Source of the DNA: Kofleriaceae bacterium
Lineage (GTDB): Bacteria > Myxococcota_A > Polyangia > Haliangiales > Haliangiaceae
Direction: 5' to 3'
Assembly: GCA_041389925.1 (NCBI GenBank)
Contig: JAWKQX010000006.1
Coordinates: 215,837-279,836, forward strand
DNA: 64,000 nt
The notes beneath the pieces were generated by a model, which was not told the DNA's origin, did no database searches, and saw only the letters and a program-made list of their open reading frames with translations. The position numbers and the translations under genes were made by a program. Of this stretch, positions 1,296 to 32,575 are shown piece by piece (positions within the stretch are counted from its first letter, which is position 1; each line of letters starts with the position of its first letter).

Positions 1296-2948
1296 ATGAC
1301 CAACGCAGCGAAGCCTTCGCTCGTTCGGCCACTCACGCGAGGGCCGATGGCGACGACGGTCACCGTGCGGGAGCTCATCGCGAAGGTCTCGGCAGGGGCC
1401 GTGCGGATCCCCCGCTTTCAGCGGCCGCTACGCTGGCGCGATGTAGACGTCGTGAAGCTCCTGGACAGCATCTCGAAGGGGTATCCCGTCGGCTCGCTCC
1501 TCTTCTGGAAGCGCGAGGCGCCCGCCGAGCCGCTCCAGGTGGGCGGGGCCACGATTTCGACCGAGCACACCGAAGACGCCTGGTGGGTCGTGGACGGGCA
1601 GCAGCGGACGACCGCGCTCGCCGCGTCCCTCCTTGATCTTGACCACGGCGGTGACGTTCGCTGGGTCGTGTCCTTTGACCCGGCGACGAACAGCTTTCGC
1701 AGCGGTCCGCCAAACCCGGAGGAGGAAGGGCGCGTGGTTCCCGTCTCGGTGCTGGGTGACCTGCGCCGCCTCGGACGGTGGATTCGCGACAGCCCGCTGG
1801 ACGAGGCGTCGACCGATCTCCTCGAGCAGGTGCAGCAGCGCCTGCTGGACTACGCGATCCCGGCGTACGTCGTGGACACGGAGGATGAGCAGGCGCTGCG
1901 TGCTGTGTTCGCGCGGCTCAACAGCACGGGCACACATATGCGCGAGGATGAGGTCTTCCACGCACTGTACGGTGCTCCATATCAAAGTGGTGCAGCCTCG
2001 CTCGACCTGGATGCGCTGCAGAACGCTTGCGACGTAGACGGGTTCGGCAAACCGCTGCGGGAAGATGTCTTGCGGGCGGTCCTCGCGATGGCGGGCCATG
2101 AGCCTTTTGCTCGGACCGACGTTAGCGAGCTTGACTCGGCGGAGCTACCGTCGCGCGGTGACGCCGAGCGGGTGCTCACCAATGTTCGCGAGTTTCTCTT
2201 CTCACAATGCGGAGTGCCGACCTACTCGTTGCTCCCGTACCCGGTGGCGTTCGTGATCCTCGTGAAGTGGTTCTACCTTCATCCCGACAGCGACCAACCC
2301 ACACGTCAGCAGCTCGCGCGTTGGTTCTGGCGTGAAGCCGCGGCGGGAGTTCACCAGGGCGCTGACGCAGTTCGTGTAGTTCGCATGCGGTTGCAGAGCA
2401 AAAAAATTACGTCGGATCTGCAAGGCTCGCTTGCTCGCCTGCTCGCACAGGCGCCGAGCGACGCGTTCACGGCCTCCCGGGGGTGGAGCTTGCAACGCTT
2501 CGGCTCGCGTAGCGCGCGGAGCCGCCTTGAGACCTTGGCGCTCTTGTCGCGCAGGCCTCGAGACAAGTTTGGAGAGGTGTCGATCGCAGAAGTCGAGGGG
2601 CGGCTGGCGCGAGAGATCTTCTCCTCAAACACCTGGGACGCGTTGGACCGTCCGGACCGCGGGCTGGCGACGACCGCAGCGAACCGGGCAATCCTGGATG
2701 CTAGGGATGTCGATCTCGACGCCCACCTCCGTGAATGGGATGCTGTGAAGGACGCAGAACGGCTACGCACTCACCTGATCGATGAGACATCGTTTCGCCT
2801 GCTGCTCAAGGGCGAGGTCGGCGCGTTTCTGCATCGAAGGGCGGAAGCTGTGCGCGAGTGCGTCGAGAGCTTCTTGCGGGATCGTTGTGCGTGGGAAGAG
2901 CCGCTGTTCCGCCTTCCAGACGCCTACATCGACAAGGATGACCCTTGA
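1296..2948 (+). CDS. DUF262 (ParB/Srx-like, DGQQR motif) domain protein, GmrSD/DndB-like N-terminal module with no recognizable DUF1524/HNH nuclease C-terminus
   Basis: RIPRFQRPLRW...VVDGQQRTTAL is the hallmark DUF262 motif. The ORF listed from 552 overlaps the IS, so I place the start at ATG 1296 (alternative ATG at 1347). The stop TGA overlaps the TTG start of the next gene. Confidence 0.75.
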   Translation: MTNAAKPSLVRPLTRGPMATTVTVRELIAKVSAGAVRIPRFQRPLRWRDVDVVKLLDSISKGYPVGSLLFWKREAPAEPLQVGGATISTEHTEDAWWVVDGQQRTTALAASLLDLDHGGDVRWVVSFDPATNSFRSGPPNPEEEGRVVPVSVLGDLRRLGRWIRDSPLDEASTDLLEQVQQRLLDYAIPAYVVDTEDEQALRAVFARLNSTGTHMREDEVFHALYGAPYQSGAASLDLDALQNACDVDGFGKPLREDVLRAVLAMAGHEPFARTDVSELDSAELPSRGDAERVLTNVREFLFSQCGVPTYSLLPYPVAFVILVKWFYLHPDSDQPTRQQLARWFWREAAAGVHQGADAVRVVRMRLQSKKITSDLQGSLARLLAQAPSDAFTASRGWSLQRFGSRSARSRLETLALLSRRPRDKFGEVSIAEVEGRLAREIFSSNTWDALDRPDRGLATTAANRAILDARDVDLDAHLREWDAVKDAERLRTHLIDETSFRLLLKGEVGAFLHRRAEAVRECVESFLRDRCAWEEPLFRLPDAYIDKDDP

Positions 2949-4198
2949 CCGCGACGCTCACGGCAGGGGCACAGGTCTGGATCTACGACGCGCGCGTGGG
3001 GACGTTGCAGAGAGATCCGAGCGGAGCTATCCGCTTCACGCCCGAGCGTGCGTGGCTCGAAGGTGGGCAGCATCCGCCCCTCGGCTTCGGCATGTTGGCC
3101 AAGCCCGGGGTGCGCGTTGGACGAACGGGCTTGCCGCCCTGGTTCGAGAACCTCTTGCCAGAGCAAGACGGTGCGCTTCGCCGGATGATCTGCCGCTCCC
3201 TGGGGCTCCGCACCAACGACTCGGCGGCGTTGCTGGTGGCGCTGGGAGACGACCTTCCCGGCGCGGTGCGAGTCGTCGGAGACGGCTTCGAGGATCCAGG
3301 TGGTGTACCAGCTGAGCTGGAAGGAGAAGCGGAGGTGCCGTCGTCTGCGCTGAAGATCTCCCTGGCAGGCCTTCAGCTCAAGCTGTCCATGTCCCTGGAA
3401 GGGGACCGGCTGGTCCTGCCCGTGAGCGGCGGCGTCGGCCGATGGATCGTGAAGATCCCAGGTGCGCAGTTTCCGGAGCTCCCGGAGATTGAGGCCGCGA
3501 CGATGAGCTGGGCCCGAGCGATGGGCCTCTCGGTCCCGCGGATCCTCGTCGTTCGCACGGAGGAGGTCCAAGGCGTGAGCGCTCGGATCATGGAGCACTC
3601 CCCCACGGTGTTCGCCATCGAGCGCTTCGACCGACTCGATGATGGCCGGGTGCACCAGGAAGACCTCGCGCAGTCCTTCGAGTTGCCCCCTACGTGCAAG
3701 TATGGAGATTGCTCCGAGCTGAGGAGTCGCGGGAAGATCCGCTACTCTGGTGTCGCGAAGCTGATCGGCGATCTCTGCGGCGACACGGGGCGTGACGATT
3801 TCCTGGATCGCCTGGCGTTCGTCATCGCCTCCGGGAACGGAGACGCCCACCTGAAGAACTGGTCCTTGCAGTGGTCGCATGAACATCGACCCCGGCTCTC
3901 CCCTTGCTATGACATGGTCGCGACGGTGTCCTGGCCCGAGCACGATCGTTCGCTCGCGCTGGAGCTGGTTCGTGGCGTAAGCGCGTTTGCGTCGATCGAT
4001 CGCACGGCGCTGAGGCGCTTCGTCGAGGCTGCCAACATCGAGCACGGCGAGGAGCGCGTCATCACCGCGCTGCAGCGCGCGCGGTCAAGCTGGAGCCAAG
4101 TTGCCCAGGATGCGCCGGAGCGCATGCGCGCCGCCTTGACAGCTCACTGGCAGGACGTTCCGCTGCTTCGCGAGCTCGGCGGCCTCGTCGACGAGTGA
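2945..4198 (+). CDS. HipA-like serine/threonine kinase toxin family protein
   Basis: HipA N-terminal pattern (VWIYDARVGTLQ...FTPERAWL), the GLQLKLSM loop, catalytic HQEDLAQ and GNGDAHLKNWSL (DxHxKN) motifs. The TTG start overlaps the upstream stop (TTGA), so the two genes are translationally coupled. Confidence 0.85.
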   Translation: MTATLTAGAQVWIYDARVGTLQRDPSGAIRFTPERAWLEGGQHPPLGFGMLAKPGVRVGRTGLPPWFENLLPEQDGALRRMICRSLGLRTNDSAALLVALGDDLPGAVRVVGDGFEDPGGVPAELEGEAEVPSSALKISLAGLQLKLSMSLEGDRLVLPVSGGVGRWIVKIPGAQFPELPEIEAATMSWARAMGLSVPRILVVRTEEVQGVSARIMEHSPTVFAIERFDRLDDGRVHQEDLAQSFELPPTCKYGDCSELRSRGKIRYSGVAKLIGDLCGDTGRDDFLDRLAFVIASGNGDAHLKNWSLQWSHEHRPRLSPCYDMVATVSWPEHDRSLALELVRGVSAFASIDRTALRRFVEAANIEHGEERVITALQRARSSWSQVAQDAPERMRAALTAHWQDVPLLRELGGLVDE

Positions 4199-6010: not shown

Positions 6011-7093
6011 TCACGCGCCCGACGGTGCCAGCACAGCTCTATTCCCTAGCCCGGTTCCTGGATGTGCGCTGCGCGCGCCGATGATGGGCCGGAACTTCGC
6101 TGGGACCTTCGTCGTTGGCTCGGCAGGCGAGCAGGGGGAGCGATCAGGTGGGAGCAGCTTGGGGGTGCTTCGCTGTTTTCGTTTCCCGAAGAACTGCGTG
6201 GCGATCTCTCTCGCGAACACTTCCGCGAGCAGGGAGGGCACCGCGTTCCCGATCTGGCGCTGCACTTCGGTTCGACTGCCCCTGACCTGAATGTCATCCG
6301 GAAACGTCTGGATGCGGGCGAGTTCTCTCATCGACAGTCGCCGGTTCTGCCAGTGAAACGGCCCTACTGCTGGACCGGGTTGCGCCTGAACCGTCCAGGA
6401 CGGCAAGTGCTTTGCGAGCTTGAGCAAGAACGACCAGTAGCGGCGGCGCCAACCAAACAGTTCTTCCCCTCCCATGCGACTGGTGTGCCACGGGTAGTTG
6501 TGGCCCTCCGGGATCGATGGAAGTAAATCCGCCCACCGACCAGTGAGGGCGACTGGTTCGCCTGGCTCTGGCCCCACGTCTGCGAGCGCGTCCCACGCCG
6601 TGCGATAGAGGGAGAGCTGCGACGAAAACAGATCAGTCGGCGATTTCGTAGGATCCGCGTGAGTTGGTCCTGGAAACCTGAACTCTGAACCGTCGCGAGA
6701 CGCGACCATGACCAGTTGACATGGTGGCCCCCCAATCAGTACGGCGGCCTCTCCCTTCTTCAAGTTGACGCCCTCGAGGATCTCACCGCTGGGCACTTTC
6801 AAGATGTCCCTCTCGATCACGGGCCAGCCCCTCCCGTTGTTGCGCAGCGTCTCCTGGAGCAGTCGGGAGAGAACACGTGGAAGATGCCCGCATGAGATTC
6901 TTCGTGGGACGTGTCGACGCGCACGCGCGTCCTTCCGGTGTGGGCGATGTAGCCGATCGGCTACAAACGCCGCGAAAGGTGACCGTCGCTTCCTGCGCGC
7001 CAGGATTTCCGCTACGTTCGCCCCGTGAGAGCGCGGTGGCGCGGTGGAAGCAGCGAACGTCGAGACCTCGAAGCGGCGGATGAGGTGTGGCAT
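6011..7093 (-). pseudogene. C5-cytosine DNA methyltransferase-like gene, degenerate (motif I SAM-binding region absent)
   Basis: C-terminal 360 aa of the long minus ORF carries GGPPCQ (motif IV) and RELARIQTFPDD...QIGNAVP (motifs IX/X). No FxGxGG motif I is present, and the upstream part of the ORF is a low-complexity shadow. Confidence 0.5.
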
Positions 7094-7246
7094 GACGAGG
7101 CGCGACGCTTGGCAGTCACGAAGGTGTCCGCCACCGATGATGCGCTGTTGGCGCAACTGCTTGAGGGAGGCAAGGCTGCTGCGCTGGCCCCGGGCAAGCT
7201 GACGCTCGTAGAGGCCGAGCTGCTGCGAGCCAGTCGGACGCCGCAG

Positions 7247-10200
7247 ATGAGCCCGGACACCGCGCTCGAGTATGCGCGGTGGATCCTGCGCGCGGAACGC
7301 GAGGGGCCCGCGGCGCCCTCCGCGCCAACAGCCCTCCGCGCCGACGCGCGCCCGGCGCGCGACGTGCCTGCGCCTGGGGCACCCGCGGCGAGGGAGCCCG
7401 CGCGGCTGCGCGTTGTCGATGACCTTGCATGGAGCGGCGCTCTGGCACGCCGAAGCGGAGCGCACGACGCGCGCGCGCCCGCAGCGGACGCGCGCACCTG
7501 GCCTCGCCGCGGCCGCGCTGACTCCGCGGCCGCTCGCTGGGCCCCGCCGAGCAAGGTCGCGGCGAGGCCAACGCCGGGGGGCCTCGTCGATCCAGAGCAG
7601 GATCGCGGCGAGCACGCGCTGGAGCGCGCTCTCACCCTCGTGCGCGCCGACGGTGAGGGCGCGCCGCTCGCTTCGTCCGTGAGGTTGTCCCTCGACGCCG
7701 AACTGGGCGAGGTGTCTGCGCGCGCCCGTGTCCACACCAGCTCGCTCGCCGCCGAGGCCGCGCAGCTGCTTGGCGCCCAGGCGTTCACCGTTGGTCGCGA
7801 CATCTATTTCGCGGACGGACAGTATGCGCCGGACACCGCTGCGGGCGTTCGGTTGCTTCGGCATGAGCTCACCCACGTCGCCCAGCACGAGCGTGGCGAG
7901 CTCGCCGCGCACGGGGACGCCAAGGTGCTCGCGCCGTCCAGCGCGCAGGAGGCCGAGGCTCACGCCGCCGAGCACCGCGCTCCCGGCGTCGGCGCCTCCA
8001 CGGCCATCGCCTCCCCCGCAGGAGCCAAGAACGCTCCGTTCCTGGCGCGGCCCACAGACGACCTCTTCTCCGCCGATGGGCGCACCAGCGCGATCACCAG
8101 CACCGCGATCGCTCGCAAGCCCGGGGACGCGCCTACCGCCATCCCTGCCGGCGGTGTCAACATCAACAAGGTCGGCGTGGTAGCTTGGGACGGCGCGCCA
8201 GCGCTGCGCCTGCGGTCGGCGCGCAGCACCGGCAGCAAGATCCTCGCCGAGCTGCTCTTCAACAGCCGCTTGCAGGTCATCAAGGAGTTCCCCGGCCAGT
8301 GGTACTTTGTCTCGACGCAGTCGGGGCTCCTGGGCTACGTCTTCAAGGCGCACGTCAAGACCAACCTGCCCGAGCCCGGTGCCAAGCTGCACAAGGTCAA
8401 GGCTGGCCGGTCCGGCTTCGCGATCGCCATCGCCGAGCAGCACTATCGCGCGCACGCCGACGACTGGGGGCAAGATCTGCGCTTCTACGTCAATGTGCTC
8501 GCCTGGGTGAACAAGCGCCCCGTGCCGGACTCGACGGCTGGATGGAAGCGCCTCCAGTTCCGCGCGGGCGAGCTGATCTGGATCCCGACGCCGTCCTTCG
8601 CGCGCAGCCTGCGCGGCGTCGTCAACTCGGGCTCGGTGTCGTACAACGCGCTCGACGCGGTCGGCCTCGCCGGCTTCCTCGAGCGGACCGGCGAGCTCTG
8701 GGACGACGTGCGCGCGGCGATCTCGCTCTCGACCAAGTATCTACCCGCCGCCATCCGCGCCCACGTCGAAGAGTCGCTCTGGTCGATCCTGGAGGCGATG
8801 GCCTTGCTGCTCGTCGGCGCCGCAGCGGTGCTGGCGATCTCTACGGCGATCGGCGCCGCGCTCGGCGCGCTGGCCGGCGGCGCGGGCGCTGCGCCGGGCG
8901 CGGCCGCCGGCTTCGAGGTCGGCCTGGTGCTGCTCAACTGGCTCGGCCTCGGCTTCCTCATCGTCTGGCTCGGGCAGTCGTTGGTCAAGGTGGGCGGCGC
9001 CTTCGGCACGTTCCTCGGCCAGATCTGGGGTGCTCGTGGTGACGCCGCCAAGGTTGACCTGGCCGCCCGCCAGTTCGCCGAGGCGATCGGAACGCTGTGC
9101 GGCGTGCTCATCGAGGCGCTGGTGATGTGGGCCGCCTCCATCGGCGTGGGCCGCGCCATGGGCGTCCTCCGCGGCACGCGCTTCGGCAAGGGGTTCCAGA
9201 GCACGGCCGCCGGCGAGTGGCTGACGCGTCGGGTCGACGCGGTCAAGAGCGGAGACGCCGCGCTGCCCACGCCGAAGGAGGCGTGGAACAAGTTCTCCTG
9301 GAATCGCACCCCGACCGCGAAGCGCCTGCTCGAGCTCTTCGGGGCGACGGCGAGCGAGCACTTCCGCCCGATCGAGCCGAACAAGGTGAGCGTCCATGGT
9401 GAGCTCAAGATCTCGGCGCGCGCGCTGGACGCGCTGTCCGACGCAGATCTGGTGAAGCTCGTCGAGCTCTGCAAGAACAAGGGGCCCGCGGAGGCCTATG
9501 CCTACTTCGAGTCCTCCAGCACCAACGGCGGCAAGCCCGGCGCTCGCCTGCGCTTCGAGTCGCGCCTGCAGGAACGCGCGCAGCAGGTGGTGGACGGGAT
9601 CCGTGAGAGCCTGGGCATCAAGCCTGGCGACGCCCGCGCCAAGCTGCTGGAGAACCTGAGCGAAGGTGACAAGCTCCGCCTCTGGGATCTGTTCAACGAG
9701 CAAGCGTTCAAGAACGCCCAGCTCCGCAAGCAAGCCGCCGAGTGGGCCCTTGGCAAGAAGCCCAAGACCGTGCGAGAGCTGGTAGCGCAGATGCAGTTCT
9801 TCGAGGCCGAGGTGAGCAGGCAGGGAGAGTTGCTCACCGAGCGCGTGAGAGAAGAAAATGCGCGACTCCTACGAGACGCAGCGGACGCCAAGGGCGGTGA
9901 TCTGAGCCCTGTGGAGCAGCGAAACATTACGCGTGAAGTGACGGAGAGGATCCTGGGCAAGGCGCTCGATGCCATTGGTACGGCTGCGGAGAAGGCGGCC
10001 CGAACAAAAGCGCTAGGCGATCTCAACCAGAGTTCTACGGCGTCGGTGGATGCGGCCTGGAGGAGCAACCTCACGGCACAGACTGGCGCCAACGCGCCGC
10101 GGCCGATTCGCCTCGGGGCTCATGATGATGCAACGCTTCCGGCAAAGGTTCAGGAGGCTGGCGATCGCCTCACGTTTGGTAGCGATGCCGATGGCGCGTA

Positions 10201-26764: not shown

Positions 26765-28168
26765 ATGATGACGAAGCGGCGGTTGCAGCGGTCGCTGCCC
26801 TGGATGGGCTGCCTCGGCGTGGGTGCGATCGCCGCGGCTTTGGGTGCGTGCGCCTCGCCCTCGGCCGCGCCCAACCAAGGGCGCGCGGCGCCGCCGGCCG
26901 GTGGACCGCCGTCCACCTCCGCGCCCGCCGGCGCCGTCGCTGGAGGCCCCCCCACCGCGCCCGCCTCCGACGAGCCTGAGCCCGACAGCGGGGCGTCCTG
27001 CCCGCCGTGCCCCAGCGCCGACGTGGATCCCGAGGGGCGCTCGCAGAGCCCGAGCGTGCGCGACAAGCTCACGCTGACCCGCGTCACCTTCGCCGAGCTG
27101 CCCGGCTGGGACGACGATCACCACGCCGAGGCGCTGCCCGCGGTGCTGGCCTCGTGCGACAAGCTCGATCAGCTCAAGGACCGCGCGCCGCTGGGCGTGG
27201 ACGGCAACGGCGGCCAGGCGCGGCACTGGCGCGCGCTGTGCCGCGGGGCGCGCAAGGTCAAGCCGGGCGACGACGCCGCGGCCAAGGCGCTGCTGGAGCG
27301 CGAGCTCCGCCCGTACGCGGCGAGCGGGCGCGCCGGGCGCGACGGCAAGATGACCGGGTACTACGTGCAGGCGCTGCGCGGCTCGCGCACCCGGCACGGT
27401 CGCTACCAGGTGCCGATCTACGGCCGCCCCTCGGACCTGGTCGTCGTCGATCTCGCGCCGTTTCTGCCCGACGCGCGGGGGCGCCGCATCTGGGGCCGCC
27501 TCGACGCCAAGAAGGGCTCGATCGTCCGCTACCCGACGCGCGCCGAGATCCGCCGCGGGGCGCTGCGCGGGCAGGGGCTGGAGATCCTGTGGGTCGACGA
27601 CGCCGTCGACGCGCTGTTCGCGCAGATCCAGGGCTCCGGCAAGGTCGCGCTCGACGACGGCACCGAGCAGTGGATCGAGTTCGCCGGCAAGAACGGCCGC
27701 GCCTATCGCGGCGTGGGGCGCATCCTGCGCGATCTCGGCGAGCCGCCCGGCACCGGCACGATGCAGGGGATCCGCCGGTACTTCGCCGCGCACCCCGACA
27801 AGTTCAACGAGATCGCCGATCAGAACGAGTCGTTCGTGTTCTTCGGGCTGTCCAAGCGTCCGGGCGCGGTCGGCTCGCAGGGCGTGATCCTCACGCCGCG
27901 GCGCTCCATGGCGGTCGACCGCGCGTTCGTCGCCGCGTCGACGCCGATCTGGGTGGAGACGCGCGCGCCCGATCGCGCGGGCAAGGTGCGGCCGTGGCGC
28001 CAGCTCCTGGTCGCGCAGGACACCGGCGAGGGCATCCGCGGCGCGGTGCGCGGCGACATCTACTGGGGTCACGACGAGGAGGCCACCGAGATCGCCGGGC
28101 ACATGGGCGGCAAGGGGCGCTATTGGCTGCTCTTGCCCAAGCGCTTGAAGGTGCGCACGGGGAAGTAA
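26765..28168 (+). CDS. mltA: membrane-bound lytic murein transglycosylase A (MltA; 3D domain) lipoprotein
   Basis: MMTKRRLQRSLPWMGCLGVGAIAAALGAC lipoprotein signal, MltA domain (FAELPGWDDD...YYVQALRGS...) and C-terminal 3D domain (VAQDTGEGIRGAVRGDIYWG). The annotated 25865 start is a shadow extension. ATG 26753 is an alternative start. Confidence 0.8.
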   Translation: MMTKRRLQRSLPWMGCLGVGAIAAALGACASPSAAPNQGRAAPPAGGPPSTSAPAGAVAGGPPTAPASDEPEPDSGASCPPCPSADVDPEGRSQSPSVRDKLTLTRVTFAELPGWDDDHHAEALPAVLASCDKLDQLKDRAPLGVDGNGGQARHWRALCRGARKVKPGDDAAAKALLERELRPYAASGRAGRDGKMTGYYVQALRGSRTRHGRYQVPIYGRPSDLVVVDLAPFLPDARGRRIWGRLDAKKGSIVRYPTRAEIRRGALRGQGLEILWVDDAVDALFAQIQGSGKVALDDGTEQWIEFAGKNGRAYRGVGRILRDLGEPPGTGTMQGIRRYFAAHPDKFNEIADQNESFVFFGLSKRPGAVGSQGVILTPRRSMAVDRAFVAASTPIWVETRAPDRAGKVRPWRQLLVAQDTGEGIRGAVRGDIYWGHDEEATEIAGHMGGKGRYWLLLPKRLKVRTGK

Positions 28169-28214
28169 CTGTTCTCGCTGGCGTCCTGGGAGCCTTGGCG
28201 GTATTTTCCCGACC

Positions 28215-29111
28215 ATGCGAACGACCAAGCTCCTCGCCTTTGTGCTGCTGGCGGCCGCCGCCTGTCAGCAAGAAGGTCCACCCAAGTTTCAGTTCTCCAA
28301 AGACGTCGAGGCTCCCGCTGCCGCCTCGGGGGACCTCGCCACGCGCGTCGCCGCGCTGGAGGCGGAGGCCGCCAAGAACAAGGAGGCCCTCGAGTTCCTC
28401 AACCAGGTCTTCGCGCAGCAGAAGAAGGCCTCCGATGAGGAAGAGCGCCGCACCGCCGCGCCCGACGCGGTCTTCGCGATCGGCATCACTGGAAACGCCG
28501 TTGACGGTCCCGCCACCGCCGCTGTGACGCTGGTGGAGGCCTGGGACTTTGCTTGACCCTACTGTGAGAGGGTCAGTTCGACCCTCAAGCAGCTGGTGAA
28601 GGAGTACAACGGTCAGCTTCGCGTCGTTTACAAGAACTTCGTCGTGCACCCCGACACGGCGATGGATGCTCACCTCGCCGCGTGCGCGGCGCAGGCGCAG
28701 AACAAGTTCATGGAGTTCAAAGAGGCCTTCTGGGTGAAGGGCTTCGGCGAGTATCGCAACACCCGCGACCCGAGCAAGATGGCGGAGCCGGCGCTCCTCG
28801 AGATCGCCCGGGGGCTCGGCCTCAACGCCGACAAGCTCAAGGCCGACATGCGCGGCTCCACGTGTCAGGAGCGCGTCAAGTCGGACCAGGACGAGCTCAA
28901 TCGGTTCGGCGTCGGCGGAACGCCGGCGTTCTTCATCAACGGCAAGCCGTACCGCGGTGGTCCGGACGCGTCCCAGTTCAAGGCCGCGATTGACGCCGCG
29001 CTCAAGCAGGTGCAGGGGTCCGGCGTCGCGGCGAAGGACTACTACCAGAAGGAGGTCCTCGAGAAGGGCGAGAAGAAGTTCCGCTCGATCAAGGACCCCA
29101 AGCCGAGCTAG
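28215..29111 (+). CDS. DsbA-like thioredoxin-fold thiol:disulfide oxidoreductase lipoprotein, predicted selenoprotein (UGA at 28554-28556 read as Sec within a U-P-Y-C motif)
   Basis: ORFs 28215-28556 and 28596-29111 are in the same frame and separated only by TGA. The translation aligns residue-for-residue with the downstream paralog across the TGA (...LVEAWDFA-U-PYCERV...LKQLVKEYNGQLRVVYKNFVVHPDT versus ...LVKAFDFA-C-PYCQMA...VKQLVKEYNGKLRVVYKNFVVHPDT). A hairpin sits 14 nt downstream. Lipobox: LLAAAAC. Confidence 0.65.
28557..28590 (+). promoter_or_regulatory. candidate bacterial SECIS element (stem GAGGGUC / GACCCUC 28568-28574 and 28580-28586, apical loop AGUUC)
   Basis: Perfect 7-bp stem starting 11 nt after the UGA, with a GU-containing 5-nt apical loop about 22 nt downstream. 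This matches bacterial SECIS geometry. The paralog lacks this palindrome because its codons differ (ERVSSTLK versus QMANDPVK). Confidence 0.55.
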
Positions 29112-29278
29112 CCCTTGGCTCTTCAGCCTCACTCCGGGAGCGCTGCGCCCGGAGTGGGGAATGGTGTTTTGCGTCTTTGCGCGCCGAAAGATTTTCTCAC
29201 TTTCTCGGGAATTTCTTTCTGAAGCGTTTTTGCGTTTTGCTTCTAGGCAAACGACGCGTTCGGCGCAAAGTTTCGCTC

Positions 29279-30199
29279 ATGCCAAAGACCAAGCTCCTCG
29301 CCTGCTCGCTGCTCGCAGCGATGTCAGTCGCCAACGCCGCGTGCGATGACACGCGGAATCCGAAGTTCGAGTTCAAGTCCGCCGAGGCGGCGACCGCCGA
29401 GGCGGCGATGGGCTCCGGGGACCTCGCCTCGCGCGTCGCCGCGCTGGAGGCCGAGGCCGCCAAGAACAAGGAGGCCCTCGAGTTCCTCAACCAGGTGTGG
29501 GGACAGCAGAAGCAGCAGCGCGAGGCCCAGGAGGCCACGGTGCCGGCGCCGGACGCGGTCTTCGCCATCGACGTCACCGGCGATCCGTATGACGGCCCCG
29601 CCGACGCGCCGGTCACGCTGGTGAAGGCCTTCGACTTCGCGTGCCCCTACTGCCAGATGGCCAACGATCCGGTCAAGCAGCTCGTCAAGGAGTACAACGG
29701 CAAGCTGCGCGTCGTGTACAAGAACTTCGTCGTCCACCCGGACACCGCCACCAACGCGCACCTCGCCGGCTGCGCGGCGTGGGAGCAGAAGAAGTACATG
29801 CAGTTCAAGGACGCCTTCTGGGAGAAGGGCTACAACGCGTACCGCTCGACGCGTGATCCGTCGAAGATGGGCGAGGAGAACATCCTGGCGATCGCCAAGG
29901 AGGTCGGCCTCGACCTGGCGAAGTTCACCGCCGACATGAAGGGCGAGAAGTGCAAGAAGCAGCTCGAGGGCGACATGGCCGAGCTGTCCAAGTTTGGCAC
30001 CAACGCGACGCCGTCGTTCTACATCAACGGCCAGCCCTACCAGAACGGCCTCGAGGTCGCCTCCTTCAAGTCGGTCATCGACCAGAAGCTCAAGGAGGTC
30101 GAGGCGTCCGGCGTGCCGGGCAACCAGTACTACCAGAAGGTCGTGATCGAGAAGGGCGAGAAGAAGTTCCGCTCCAAGAAGGATCCGAAGCCGTCCTGA
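29279..30199 (+). CDS. DsbA-like thioredoxin-fold thiol:disulfide oxidoreductase lipoprotein (Cys form, CPYC active site)
   Basis: FDFACPYCQ active site, signal/lipobox (VANAAC), 306 aa. Paralog of 28215-29111. Confidence 0.8.
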   Translation: MPKTKLLACSLLAAMSVANAACDDTRNPKFEFKSAEAATAEAAMGSGDLASRVAALEAEAAKNKEALEFLNQVWGQQKQQREAQEATVPAPDAVFAIDVTGDPYDGPADAPVTLVKAFDFACPYCQMANDPVKQLVKEYNGKLRVVYKNFVVHPDTATNAHLAGCAAWEQKKYMQFKDAFWEKGYNAYRSTRDPSKMGEENILAIAKEVGLDLAKFTADMKGEKCKKQLEGDMAELSKFGTNATPSFYINGQPYQNGLEVASFKSVIDQKLKEVEASGVPGNQYYQKVVIEKGEKKFRSKKDPKPS

Positions 30200-30378
30200 G
30201 CGCGTCGCGGCCGCTCGGGCCGCCTCGTCGAGAGGCGGTCCTGGTCTTCGGCATCAGCGAGCGCTCGCTCGCGCCAGCGCCTGTTGCGCTTCGCGCGGGC
30301 GGCCTCGCAAGACCTCTCATGTGCGCCGGGCGGCGGTGAGCGGCGCCCCGCGCGCTCGCCGTCACGCAGCAGCGGGGC

Positions 30379-31095
30379 TCAGCCCTCGCGGTGGGCAGGG
30401 CCAGGCACCGTCGGCTGGGCGCGTCCCTCGGGCGGTGGCCACGGCGACAGCCGCAGCTTGGCCGCGACCTGCGCGTCCGCGACCGGGTACGGCTCCTCGC
30501 GAGGCGTGAGCAGCTCGTCGCGCGGGCGTCCGCGCTGCTCCGCGACGAGCGCGCTCACGTCCTCGATCTTGAGGATGGCATCGCCGCCGACGCGCTGTCG
30601 CCGCTGCATGGCGCCGCGCACCCCCAGCTGGATCGCGCGGCGGGGCAGCGGCTCGCCGCCAGGACCATGGTCGGGATCCCACTGCAGCCGCACGTCGGAG
30701 TCGCGCAGCGCGTCCTTCCAGGCCTCTTCGCTCGACGCGTCCGACGAGCCGAACGTCGAGGCCACCGCGCGCGCCAGGAGCTCATCGAAGTATGCGCGCC
30801 GCAGCCAGATGGCGAGCGTGATCTCCTGTCCCGGCTTCTGGCCCCAGCCCGAGCGGAACATCATCCACAGGAAGTTCGGCTTGACCCAGCTCATGCGGGC
30901 GAAGCTGTAACCACCGCCAAACGCACCGTGGGCGGCCGCGAACCGCCCGATGCTGGGACGGTAGGCCTGGTAGACGACGACGGAGTCTGCGTCGAACTGG
31001 GCGAGGATGTGGCGGCCTTGGATGGGCCACTGGCGGAGCTGAGCCTGGTAGGGCTCGAGCGTGAGAGCGGAGGGTGTCTTGGTTGTCGTCGTCAT
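30379..31095 (-). CDS. DUF4291 family protein
   Basis: VYQAYRPSIG...FARMSWVKPNFLWMMFRSGWGQKPGQEITLAIWL matches the conserved DUF4291 core. Confidence 0.6.
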   Translation of the reverse strand: MTTTTKTPSALTLEPYQAQLRQWPIQGRHILAQFDADSVVVYQAYRPSIGRFAAAHGAFGGGYSFARMSWVKPNFLWMMFRSGWGQKPGQEITLAIWLRRAYFDELLARAVASTFGSSDASSEEAWKDALRDSDVRLQWDPDHGPGGEPLPRRAIQLGVRGAMQRRQRVGGDAILKIEDVSALVAEQRGRPRDELLTPREEPYPVADAQVAAKLRLSPWPPPEGRAQPTVPGPAHREG

Positions 31096-32093: not shown

Positions 32094-32176
32094 GGTCGCG
32101 GAAGTCTCGGGGGTGCCCTTGGTAGGTGCGATCGGGCGCGCTAAGGTGCAGTCGTCTGCTCGCAAAGGAACAAGCC

Positions 32177-32575
32177 ATGGCGACGATCGAGATCACGTCC
32201 GAGAACTTCAAGAGCCACATCGAGAAGGCCGGCATCCTGGTGCTCGACTTCTGGGCGTCCTGGTGCGGTCCGTGCCGGGCGTTCGCGCCGGTGTTCGAGA
32301 AGGCCTCCGAGACTCACGCCGACGTGGTGTTCGGCAAGGTCGACACGGAGGCGCAGCAGGAGCTCGCGGGCTCGGCGGAGATCACCGCGATCCCCACGCT
32401 GATGCTGTTCCGCGACGGCGTGCTGCTCTTCCGCGAGTCCGGCGCGCTGCCGCCGCCGGCGCTCGACGAGCTGGTCAAGCAAGCCAAGGCGCTCGACATG
32501 GACAAGGTGCGCGCGGAGATCGCGGCGCACGAGCACGAGCACGAGCACGGCCCGGGCTGCAACCACGATCACTGA
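32177..32575 (+). CDS. trxA: thioredoxin
   Basis: WASWCGPCR active site, AIPTLMLF, and an aaggaa RBS 7 nt upstream of ATG 32177. C-terminal His-rich tail. Confidence 0.85.
   Translation: MATIEITSENFKSHIEKAGILVLDFWASWCGPCRAFAPVFEKASETHADVVFGKVDTEAQQELAGSAEITAIPTLMLFRDGVLLFRESGALPPPALDELVKQAKALDMDKVRAEIAAHEHEHEHGPGCNHDH

Follow-up and report, generated by a model that had tools for sequence, protein, structure and literature searches.

DsbA-like and DsbG-like selenoproteins with a UxxC active site have been known since 2005-2006 (Zhang & Gladyshev; PMC1088965 for the Sargasso Sea and PMC1794560 for bacterial genomes), and a 2026 review has the entry 'DsbA-like protein form 1, PF01323, UxxC' (PMC13188914). 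The myxobacterium Anaeromyxobacter dehalogenans is a selenocysteine (Sec) user with a DsbA-like selenoprotein (PMC1794560). Here we analyzed a stretch of 64,000 nucleotides from a Kofleriaceae bacterium (contig JAWKQX010000006.1), hereafter the window, in which two genes for predicted DsbA-like lipoproteins lie in tandem: gene A, with an in-frame UGA at the first position of its active-site motif, and gene B, with a Cys codon at that position. We conclude that gene A is very probably a genuine selenoprotein gene, in which the UGA is recoded through a selenocysteine insertion sequence (SECIS) and whose product would be an exported, lipid-anchored UPYC DsbA-like oxidoreductase, gene B being a CPYC paralog from an old duplication. 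The pair is old and fairly ordinary; it represents an uncurated family of an already known kind of DsbA-like selenoprotein, not a new kind.

As in the UxxC class of Zhang & Gladyshev, gene A combines a DsbA-type thioredoxin fold with Sec in place of the leading Cys of CxxC, a bacterial SECIS follows closely, and Cys homologues are widespread. The likeness of gene A to the Anaeromyxobacter protein is one of class. Unlike the Sargasso 'DsbA-like' set (COG2761), the window proteins are of Thioredoxin_4 type, for which the JGI name is protein-disulfide isomerase, and they have a predicted lipobox, a helical N-terminal region of ~80 aa and a KGEKKFRSxKDPKPS tail. We take them to belong to COG1651. 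The best NCBIfam match for both was NF041057 (Rcas_1661 family thioredoxin-like (seleno)lipoprotein; profile positions 2-246 of 247), which comprises lipoproteins with a thioredoxin-like domain, as A and B are predicted to be, in Sec and Cys versions. Gene A scored 76.5 bits and gene B 78.8 bits against a cut-off of 190, so that neither is a member; on these profile scores, A and B belong to a separate, uncurated sister family of NF041057. Pairs of Sec and Cys isoenzymes in one genome are familiar from the Sec and Cys hydrogenases of Methanococcus and the [NiFeSe] and [NiFe] hydrogenases of Desulfovibrio. As in those pairs, two paralogs differing at the catalytic Sec/Cys coexist here, and their use according to selenium supply is plausible; unlike them, genes A and B are adjacent and both encode predicted exported oxidoreductases.

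The preliminary description of this DNA had proposed two full-length paralogs in tandem, one a Sec form and the other a Cys form. Its coordinates were exact (Table 1), and the two proteins were found to be 60% identical end to end (BLASTP, E=1e-130). In the protein alignment we also saw two features it had listed, a common hydrophobic N-terminal leader with a Cys and nearly identical C-termini (EKGEKKFRSIKDPKPS in A and EKGEKKFRSKKDPKPS in B, with the common ending EKGEKKFRSxKDPKPS). The TGA of gene A lies opposite the first active-site Cys of gene B (...VEAWDFA-U-PYCERVSSTL... and ...VKAFDFA-C-PYCQMANDPV..., respectively), and translation of gene A revealed no other stop and no frameshift. 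The gene B protein is identical to NCBI protein P0002, which comes from a metagenome-assembled genome (MAG) of a Kofleriaceae bacterium. The preliminary description had named an assembly duplication as what would overturn it. The two genes are only 71% identical at the DNA level, and a separate, independently assembled Logan contig (L003) runs with an identical sequence from the 3' end of A across the spacer into the 5' end of B, which excludes such an artefact. The duplication of A and B is real.

Several observations indicate that the UGA of gene A is translated. In gene B and in more than 100 homologues, the residue opposite U114 was the first Cys of CPYC; 184 stop-free codons follow the UGA, and it is the sole TGA in the window with at least 60 stop-free, coding-like codons on each side. 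When each GTDB species was represented by one genome, a locus scan gave 77 loci, every one of them in a MAG of Kofleriaceae, Haliangiales or other myxobacteria. In 33 of these loci, at least one family member had a TGA at exactly the codon of gene A, as did at least 98 metagenome matches. Among the three closest Sec orthologues (those of the window, L004 and L001), the ratio of nonsynonymous to synonymous substitution rates (dN/dS) was 0.16-0.25 upstream and 0.21-0.28 downstream of the TGA, so that both halves of the gene are translated and under purifying selection. Public gene callers break the Sec genes into fragments of ~115 aa and ~130-170 aa, which explains the many 130-190-aa 'DsbA family' fragments found among the homologues.

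The RNA that follows the TGA folded at -27.1 kcal/mol (z=-3.78), and none of 200 shuffled sequences was equally stable; the equivalent stretch of gene B had no stable fold (z=0.06). A 66-nt segment around the TGA showed 92% identity per column across 31 distinct Sec forms, although the proteins themselves are often only about 45-70% identical. RNAalifold on these Sec forms gave one helix, the same 7-bp stem closing AGUUC that is seen in gene A. Within this helix 99.1% of cells were paired and 3 of the 7 pairs had compensatory double changes; these values were matched in 0 of 500 shuffles, and sliding the partner strand abolished the pairing. One locus (L076) has a hairpin at the same position with another stem sequence (CAGGUCC-AGUUU-GGUCCUG). 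Identity at third codon positions from -9 to +33 was 0.92 in the Sec forms and 0.69 in the Cys forms, compared with 0.56-0.66 in other segments. The codons fixed in the Sec forms are rare ones, since TTT, GCT, AGG and AGT account for 10% (of Phe codons), 4% (of Ala codons), 4% and 2% of their own amino-acid families in the window genes. A longer lower stem including the UGA, suggested by the single-sequence fold, was rejected: it was 91% paired, showed no compensatory change, and one of its middle pairs failed in 23 of the 31 Sec forms.

By the spacing and loop rules of the E. coli fdhF-type SECIS, the two elements are alike in that the hairpin lies within the coding sequence, 11 nt after the UGA, and has G and U in the apical loop. 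They differ in their stem and loop sequences (here a 5-nt loop, AGUUC), in that this hairpin has no Rfam model, and in that its 19-mer is common with CUAEP-tail radical SAM genes. We looked for a relic of the hairpin in the Cys paralogs and found 36-41 of 54 nt identical to the SECIS consensus and no stable hairpin. Other Cys forms had a mean of 36.7 and a maximum of 44 of 54 nt, so the paralogs were not higher, and gene B showed no surviving SECIS relic.

The exact 19-mer hairpin GAGGGTCAGTTCGACCCTC was searched in metagenome contigs and gave at least 126 matches. Among the matches listed, at least 98 were DsbA-like UP[YFH]C genes with the 11-nt spacer. In at least 19 further matches, the hairpin belonged to radical SAM genes, where it follows a UGA with a 12-nt spacer and is read in a different frame as the C-terminus of the protein (...EPWFCUAEPTEGQFDPL); thus the same nucleotides encode RVSSTL in the DsbA-like frame and EGQFDPL in the radical SAM frame. 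One of these radical SAM proteins scored 691 bits on NCBIfam NF040546 (cut-off 500), the 'CUAEP/CCAEP-tail radical SAM (seleno)protein' family, so that the hairpin of gene A is a working SECIS in a curated selenoprotein family. Taken together, the conserved TGA, the covarying hairpin, the purifying selection and the NF040546 hairpin argue that gene A is a real selenoprotein gene. In the mechanism that we propose, the UGA of gene A would be recoded to Sec by the hairpin starting 11 nt downstream, with SelA, SelB, SelC and SelD encoded elsewhere in the genome. Sec at the attacking position would make the gene A product a more reactive nucleophile, and the Cys copy may be kept as a selenium-independent backup or as a functionally diverged isoform.

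The radical SAM genes with the hairpin were found in L084, L095 (~1523, minus strand), L096, L105, L110, L122, L125, L127, L129, L151, L160, L165, L169, L176, L193 and L199. Distant DsbA-like Sec genes with the UGA and hairpin were also seen, at L098 403 (+), L106 1410 (-), L189 680 (-), L118 248 (-) and L138 4264 (+). Some of the distant Sec genes (EFSDFQ-U-PHC, EFSDFQ-U-PFC) have a transmembrane anchor in place of the lipobox, and the products of others are lipoproteins whose tail is GGKKSL or NGKKSI; all distant Sec-bearing metagenome relatives scored under the NF041057 cut-off. These distant genes suggest that the Sec state, or the module of UGA and hairpin, is broader than the Kofleriaceae family. 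The Sec forms at L007 6298, L009 2251 and L076 5229 have UPHC, with the classical DsbA dipeptide, in place of UPYC, and Cys forms with CPHC occur in L043 and L072; thus the dipeptide of the CxxC motif varies within the family.

Both proteins matched Pfam Thioredoxin_4 (PF13462, cut-off 23.2; 77.5 bits for A and 87.1 bits for B) and DSBA (PF01323, cut-off 25.6; 76.1 and 54.7 bits). The family layout comprises a leader with a Cys, a low-complexity linker, ~40 residues of helix, the DsbA-like domain and a basic tail, and the domain itself contains CPYC or UPYC, an invariant Thr-Pro and two more invariant Cys. In gene A these correspond to UPYC, Thr236-Pro237, and Cys157 and Cys217, which lie in invariant columns. 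Read by eye from the sequence, the lipobox of gene A is LLAAAA-C17 and the family consensus is ..xGC[EQ]N; Cys17 did not vary among 15 family members, and across 107 its conservation was at least 90%. Both proteins are thus predicted to be exported, anchored to lipid through their N-terminus, and extracytoplasmic.

An AlphaFold2 model of the gene B protein (predicted local distance difference test score, pLDDT, 90.7; predicted template modelling score, pTM, 0.80) had helices at residues 49-85 with pLDDT >90. Its best Protein Data Bank matches by Foldseek were 3gyk, Caulobacter ScsC (7rgv), BdbD and TsdA, followed by Wolbachia alpha-DsbA2, Proteus ScsC and BcfH. The Foldseek probability was 1.00 against the 3gyk, BdbD, ScsC and DsbA structures, and the alignment with 7rgv spanned 248 columns, the N-terminal part included. 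Like ScsC (Caulobacter 7rgv, Proteus 4xvw/5id4), BcfH (7jve) and Wolbachia alpha-DsbA2 (6eez), the window proteins have N-terminal helices before the DsbA-like domain. They share the sequence family Thioredoxin_4 with these proteins and contain the CPYC and Thr-Pro motifs. They differ from them in being only 16-20% identical, in being predicted to be lipid-anchored, and in having no ScsB/DsbD-type partner gene nearby; in addition, none of the solved ScsC, BcfH and alpha-DsbA2 structures contains Sec, unlike gene A. The long N-terminal region, which the preliminary description had called atypical for DsbA, is indeed atypical for the E. coli type of DsbA but is normal for the ScsC/BcfH/alpha-DsbA2 class that the model matched.

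CPYC and a Thr before the cis-Pro are motifs of DsbG and of isomerases or reductases of the ScsC type; ScsC, BcfH and alpha-DsbA2 trimerize through their N-terminal helices. Because of these two motifs and of the stalk, genes A and B probably encode disulfide isomerases or reductases rather than DsbA-type oxidases, although an oxidase role may apply. The helical stalk probably oligomerizes as in ScsC. We observed that the coiled-coil segment SGDLA[TS]RVAALEAEAAKNKEALEFLNQV is almost identical in DNA between the two genes (28326-28412 and 29411-29497). Where the amino acid is the same in A and B, the codon was identical in 24 of 27 cases in this segment and in 68% elsewhere (P=0.012), and this excess was absent from the L004 pair and between orthologues. 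The segment is likely to be a short gene-conversion tract between A and B. If the helices oligomerize, the near-identical coiled coil could permit mixed A/B assemblies.

The preliminary description had proposed a phylogeny of both copies, and it had read the pair as a snapshot of Sec/Cys interconversion by gene duplication. We built bootstrapped trees of 109 family members, all of them distance-based neighbour-joining trees, from the full alignment and from the C-terminal domain alone. The A clade (gene A of the window with L004 and L001) and the B clade (gene B of the window with L004, L005 and L006) each had 100% bootstrap support, and the two clades were sisters in 100% of replicates with the full alignment and in 96% with the C-terminal domain. 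A Sec/Cys switch thus did follow a local duplication; the idea of a recent snapshot did not survive, as the pair is old and 60% identical. Monophyly of all Sec forms was rejected (0% bootstrap).

Several points weigh against our reading of the pair. No gene for the Sec machinery (selA, selB, selC, selD) was found in the window or in ~1.3 Mb of related loci. ARAGORN detected no tRNA at all in the window, none of the related loci examined gave a tRNA-Sec, and a Pfam scan of 20 open reading frames of the window gave neither Sec machinery nor a Dsb partner. A tblastn search of related loci with E. coli SelD and SelA gave no match, though this is a weak test, with few bases and approximate query sequences. 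Rfam at its gathering thresholds had no match in the window or in five related loci. Neither the window nor two related loci have a gene for a redox partner (DsbB, VKOR, DsbD, CcdA, ScsB) in the neighbourhood of the pair, the predicted lipobox of gene B (VANAAC) has an unusual Asn at -3, and both the role and the oligomerization assigned to the proteins are drawn from resemblance. The derivation of gene B from a Sec-type ancestor, rather than the reverse, is only mildly favoured by the neighbour-joining trees, at about 2:1, and the occurrence of the hairpin in an unrelated family means that hairpin identity is no proof of a single origin of the Sec forms. The missing machinery would also fit a recoding of the UGA to something other than Sec, either to Cys through a tRNA-Sec-like tRNA and a SelB-like factor or by near-cognate read-through, and some bacteria have been reported to insert Cys at UGA in a SECIS-dependent manner. 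We consider such recoding very unlikely. A curated selenoprotein family has this very hairpin, many genomes would have little reason to maintain a separate Cys paralog next to the UGA copy if both encoded Cys, and Sec use, with a DsbA-like selenoprotein, is documented for a member of the Myxococcota (PMC1794560). That public gene calls give two open reading frames could suggest instead that gene A is a nonsense pseudogene, or that an error of sequencing or assembly produced the TGA or the duplication. The comparative data refute this, and we give it practically no credence: the same TGA is present in more than 30 species-level MAGs and in at least 98 metagenome matches, dN/dS downstream of it is low with no other stop or frameshift, the L003 sequence is identical, and the copies are only 71% identical in DNA.

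The direction of the switch is far less settled than the recoding. One reading is that Sec is the older state in this lipoprotein family of the Kofleriaceae and Haliangiales and that the Cys paralogs, including gene B, arose at least three times; we hold it tentatively, at somewhat under an even chance. In that case the Cys paralogs would go back to tandem duplications, after which Cys replaced Sec and the SECIS was lost, and lineages would later have kept both copies, the Sec copy or the Cys copy. Fitch parsimony on the point-estimate trees required one Cys-to-Sec change and 3-4 Sec-to-Cys changes. Two more Cys groups were nested among Sec forms in the same pattern (L078/79 with Sec neighbours at 98-99% bootstrap, L035/29 at 72-85%), and the sister group of A+B was of Sec type in 54-72% of bootstrap trees. 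Phe at +51, which lies outside the SECIS segment, is present in 100% of other Sec forms and in 0% of other Cys forms, and it is common to A, most of B and the nested Cys groups. The reverse course, in which gene A gained Sec after duplication from a Cys ancestor and gene B is the unchanged ancestral state, seems to us doubtful but well worth keeping in mind. Sec could have been gained by point mutations converging on the hairpin preferred by SelB, or through a short tract converted or transferred from another Sec paralog. Among the bootstrap trees, 17-34% gave A+B a Cys-type sister group, and a 'Sec superclade' had only 16-18% support. The same hairpin in an unrelated family and another frame makes convergence possible, many Cys forms already encode ..C-x-RVSGT.. 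at the place of the SECIS, and a short A/B conversion tract is seen elsewhere in the gene. Furthermore, Cys-to-Sec is the usual bacterial route in the literature (PMC13188914, PMC1794560). Such a gain has to contend with the parsimony counts and the nested Cys groups, which carry Phe at +51 too, and with the fact that the Sec forms have more than the hairpin in common, sharing the TTT GCT context, Glu at -6, Trp at -4 and Phe at +51.

Table 1. Features of the gene A/gene B locus (positions in the window)
Feature	Position	Strand	Remarks
Gene A, Sec-form DsbA-like predicted lipoprotein	28215..29111	+	298 codons including one UGA (Sec) at codon 114, plus stop codon
Signal peptide with lipobox, gene A (MRTTKLLAFVLLAAAA-C17)	28215..28265	+	Predicted; read from sequence
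N-terminal helical (coiled-coil-like) segment, gene A (SGDLATRVAALEAEAAKNKEALEFLNQVF)	28326..28412	+	Predicted; gene B equivalent modelled helical, pLDDT >90
DsbA-like thioredoxin-fold catalytic domain, gene A	28503..28997	+	Pfam stretch, residues 97-261
Rare-codon context TTT GCT directly 5' of UGA	28548..28553	+	Nearly invariant in 31 Sec forms
In-frame UGA, read as selenocysteine (U of UPYC)	28554..28556	+	Opposite TGC of gene B
Bacterial SECIS hairpin	28568..28586	+	7-bp stem GAGGGUC/GACCCUC, 5-nt loop AGUUC, start 11 nt after UGA
Conserved C-terminal tail KGEKKFRSIKDPKPS, gene A	29064..29108	+	Kept across family
GGGAATTTCTT motif in A-B spacer, upstream of gene B	29207..29217	+	In window, L004 and L001 remnant
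Gene B, Cys-form paralog	29279..30199	+	306 aa; CPYC, first Cys codon TGC at 29642-29644

We also compared the gene order around the pair. In the window it is M14 peptidase (-), MltA (+), A (Sec), B (Cys), DUF4291 (-), SDR (+) and thioredoxin (+), and in L004 it is MltA, Sec, Cys, SDR, PhyH and thioredoxin. L001 and L002 have MltA, the Sec gene, a remnant of the Cys gene of ~200 nt and SDR, and in L005 and L006 only the Cys copy is present, before SDR. The remnant in L001 (1261-1455), between the Sec and SDR genes, retains the leader (GGGAATTTCTT...GTTTTTGCGTT) and the last ~23 codons (..EKGEKKFRSIK..), the ~800 nt between them having been deleted. Since L004 has both copies, L001 only the Sec copy, and L005 and L006 only the Cys copy, the duplication predates at least four species-level lineages, and copies were lost later. 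Arrays of Sec and Cys genes occur in many Kofleriaceae MAGs, in the orders Cys-Sec, Sec-Cys, Sec-Sec-Cys and Sec-Cys-Cys.

Scans of 28100-30400 for sigma-70 promoters and terminators gave nothing above expectation. In the spacer between A and B, a 9-bp inverted repeat (CACTCCGGG...CCCGGAGTG; 29130-29156) is followed by a T-rich run; it is a possible terminator, which the scan missed because its loop is 9 nt. The GGGAATTTCTT motif is possibly a promoter or operator element. Together, the inverted repeat and this motif suggest that A and B may be separate transcription units. A thioredoxin gene (32126-32575, +; PF00085, 90.6 bits) lies ~2 kb downstream of the pair and is syntenic with the DsbA-like and SDR genes in L002, L004 and L005. 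Elsewhere in the window, and unrelated to the pair, we noticed a gene for a 1147-aa protein with eCIS core, SH3_3 and DUF6861 domains (6983-10426, +) and a gene for a HipA-like kinase (2942-4198, +).

The pair leaves the current understanding of Sec decoding unchanged. It adds a well-supported, widespread and mis-annotated selenoprotein family, for which no NCBIfam model reaches its cut-off and whose carriers, the Kofleriaceae and Haliangiales, are common in soil and activated sludge. A highly conserved SECIS hairpin that occurs in two unrelated selenoprotein families, in different frames, is useful for finding selenoprotein genes. Sec-to-Cys events in bacteria have been described as rare and mainly limited to FdhA and SelD (PMC13188914). 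If Sec is indeed the older state, this family would represent recurrent Sec-to-Cys conversion in a bacterial thiol oxidoreductase, contrasting with that rarity; the selenoenzyme in question would be exported and lipid-anchored, its hosts being mostly aerobic bacteria of soil and wastewater. The loci with both copies, with the Sec copy and a Cys remnant, and with the Cys copy only form a natural series that bears on why bacteria keep, gain or drop Sec in an extracytoplasmic disulfide-exchange enzyme.

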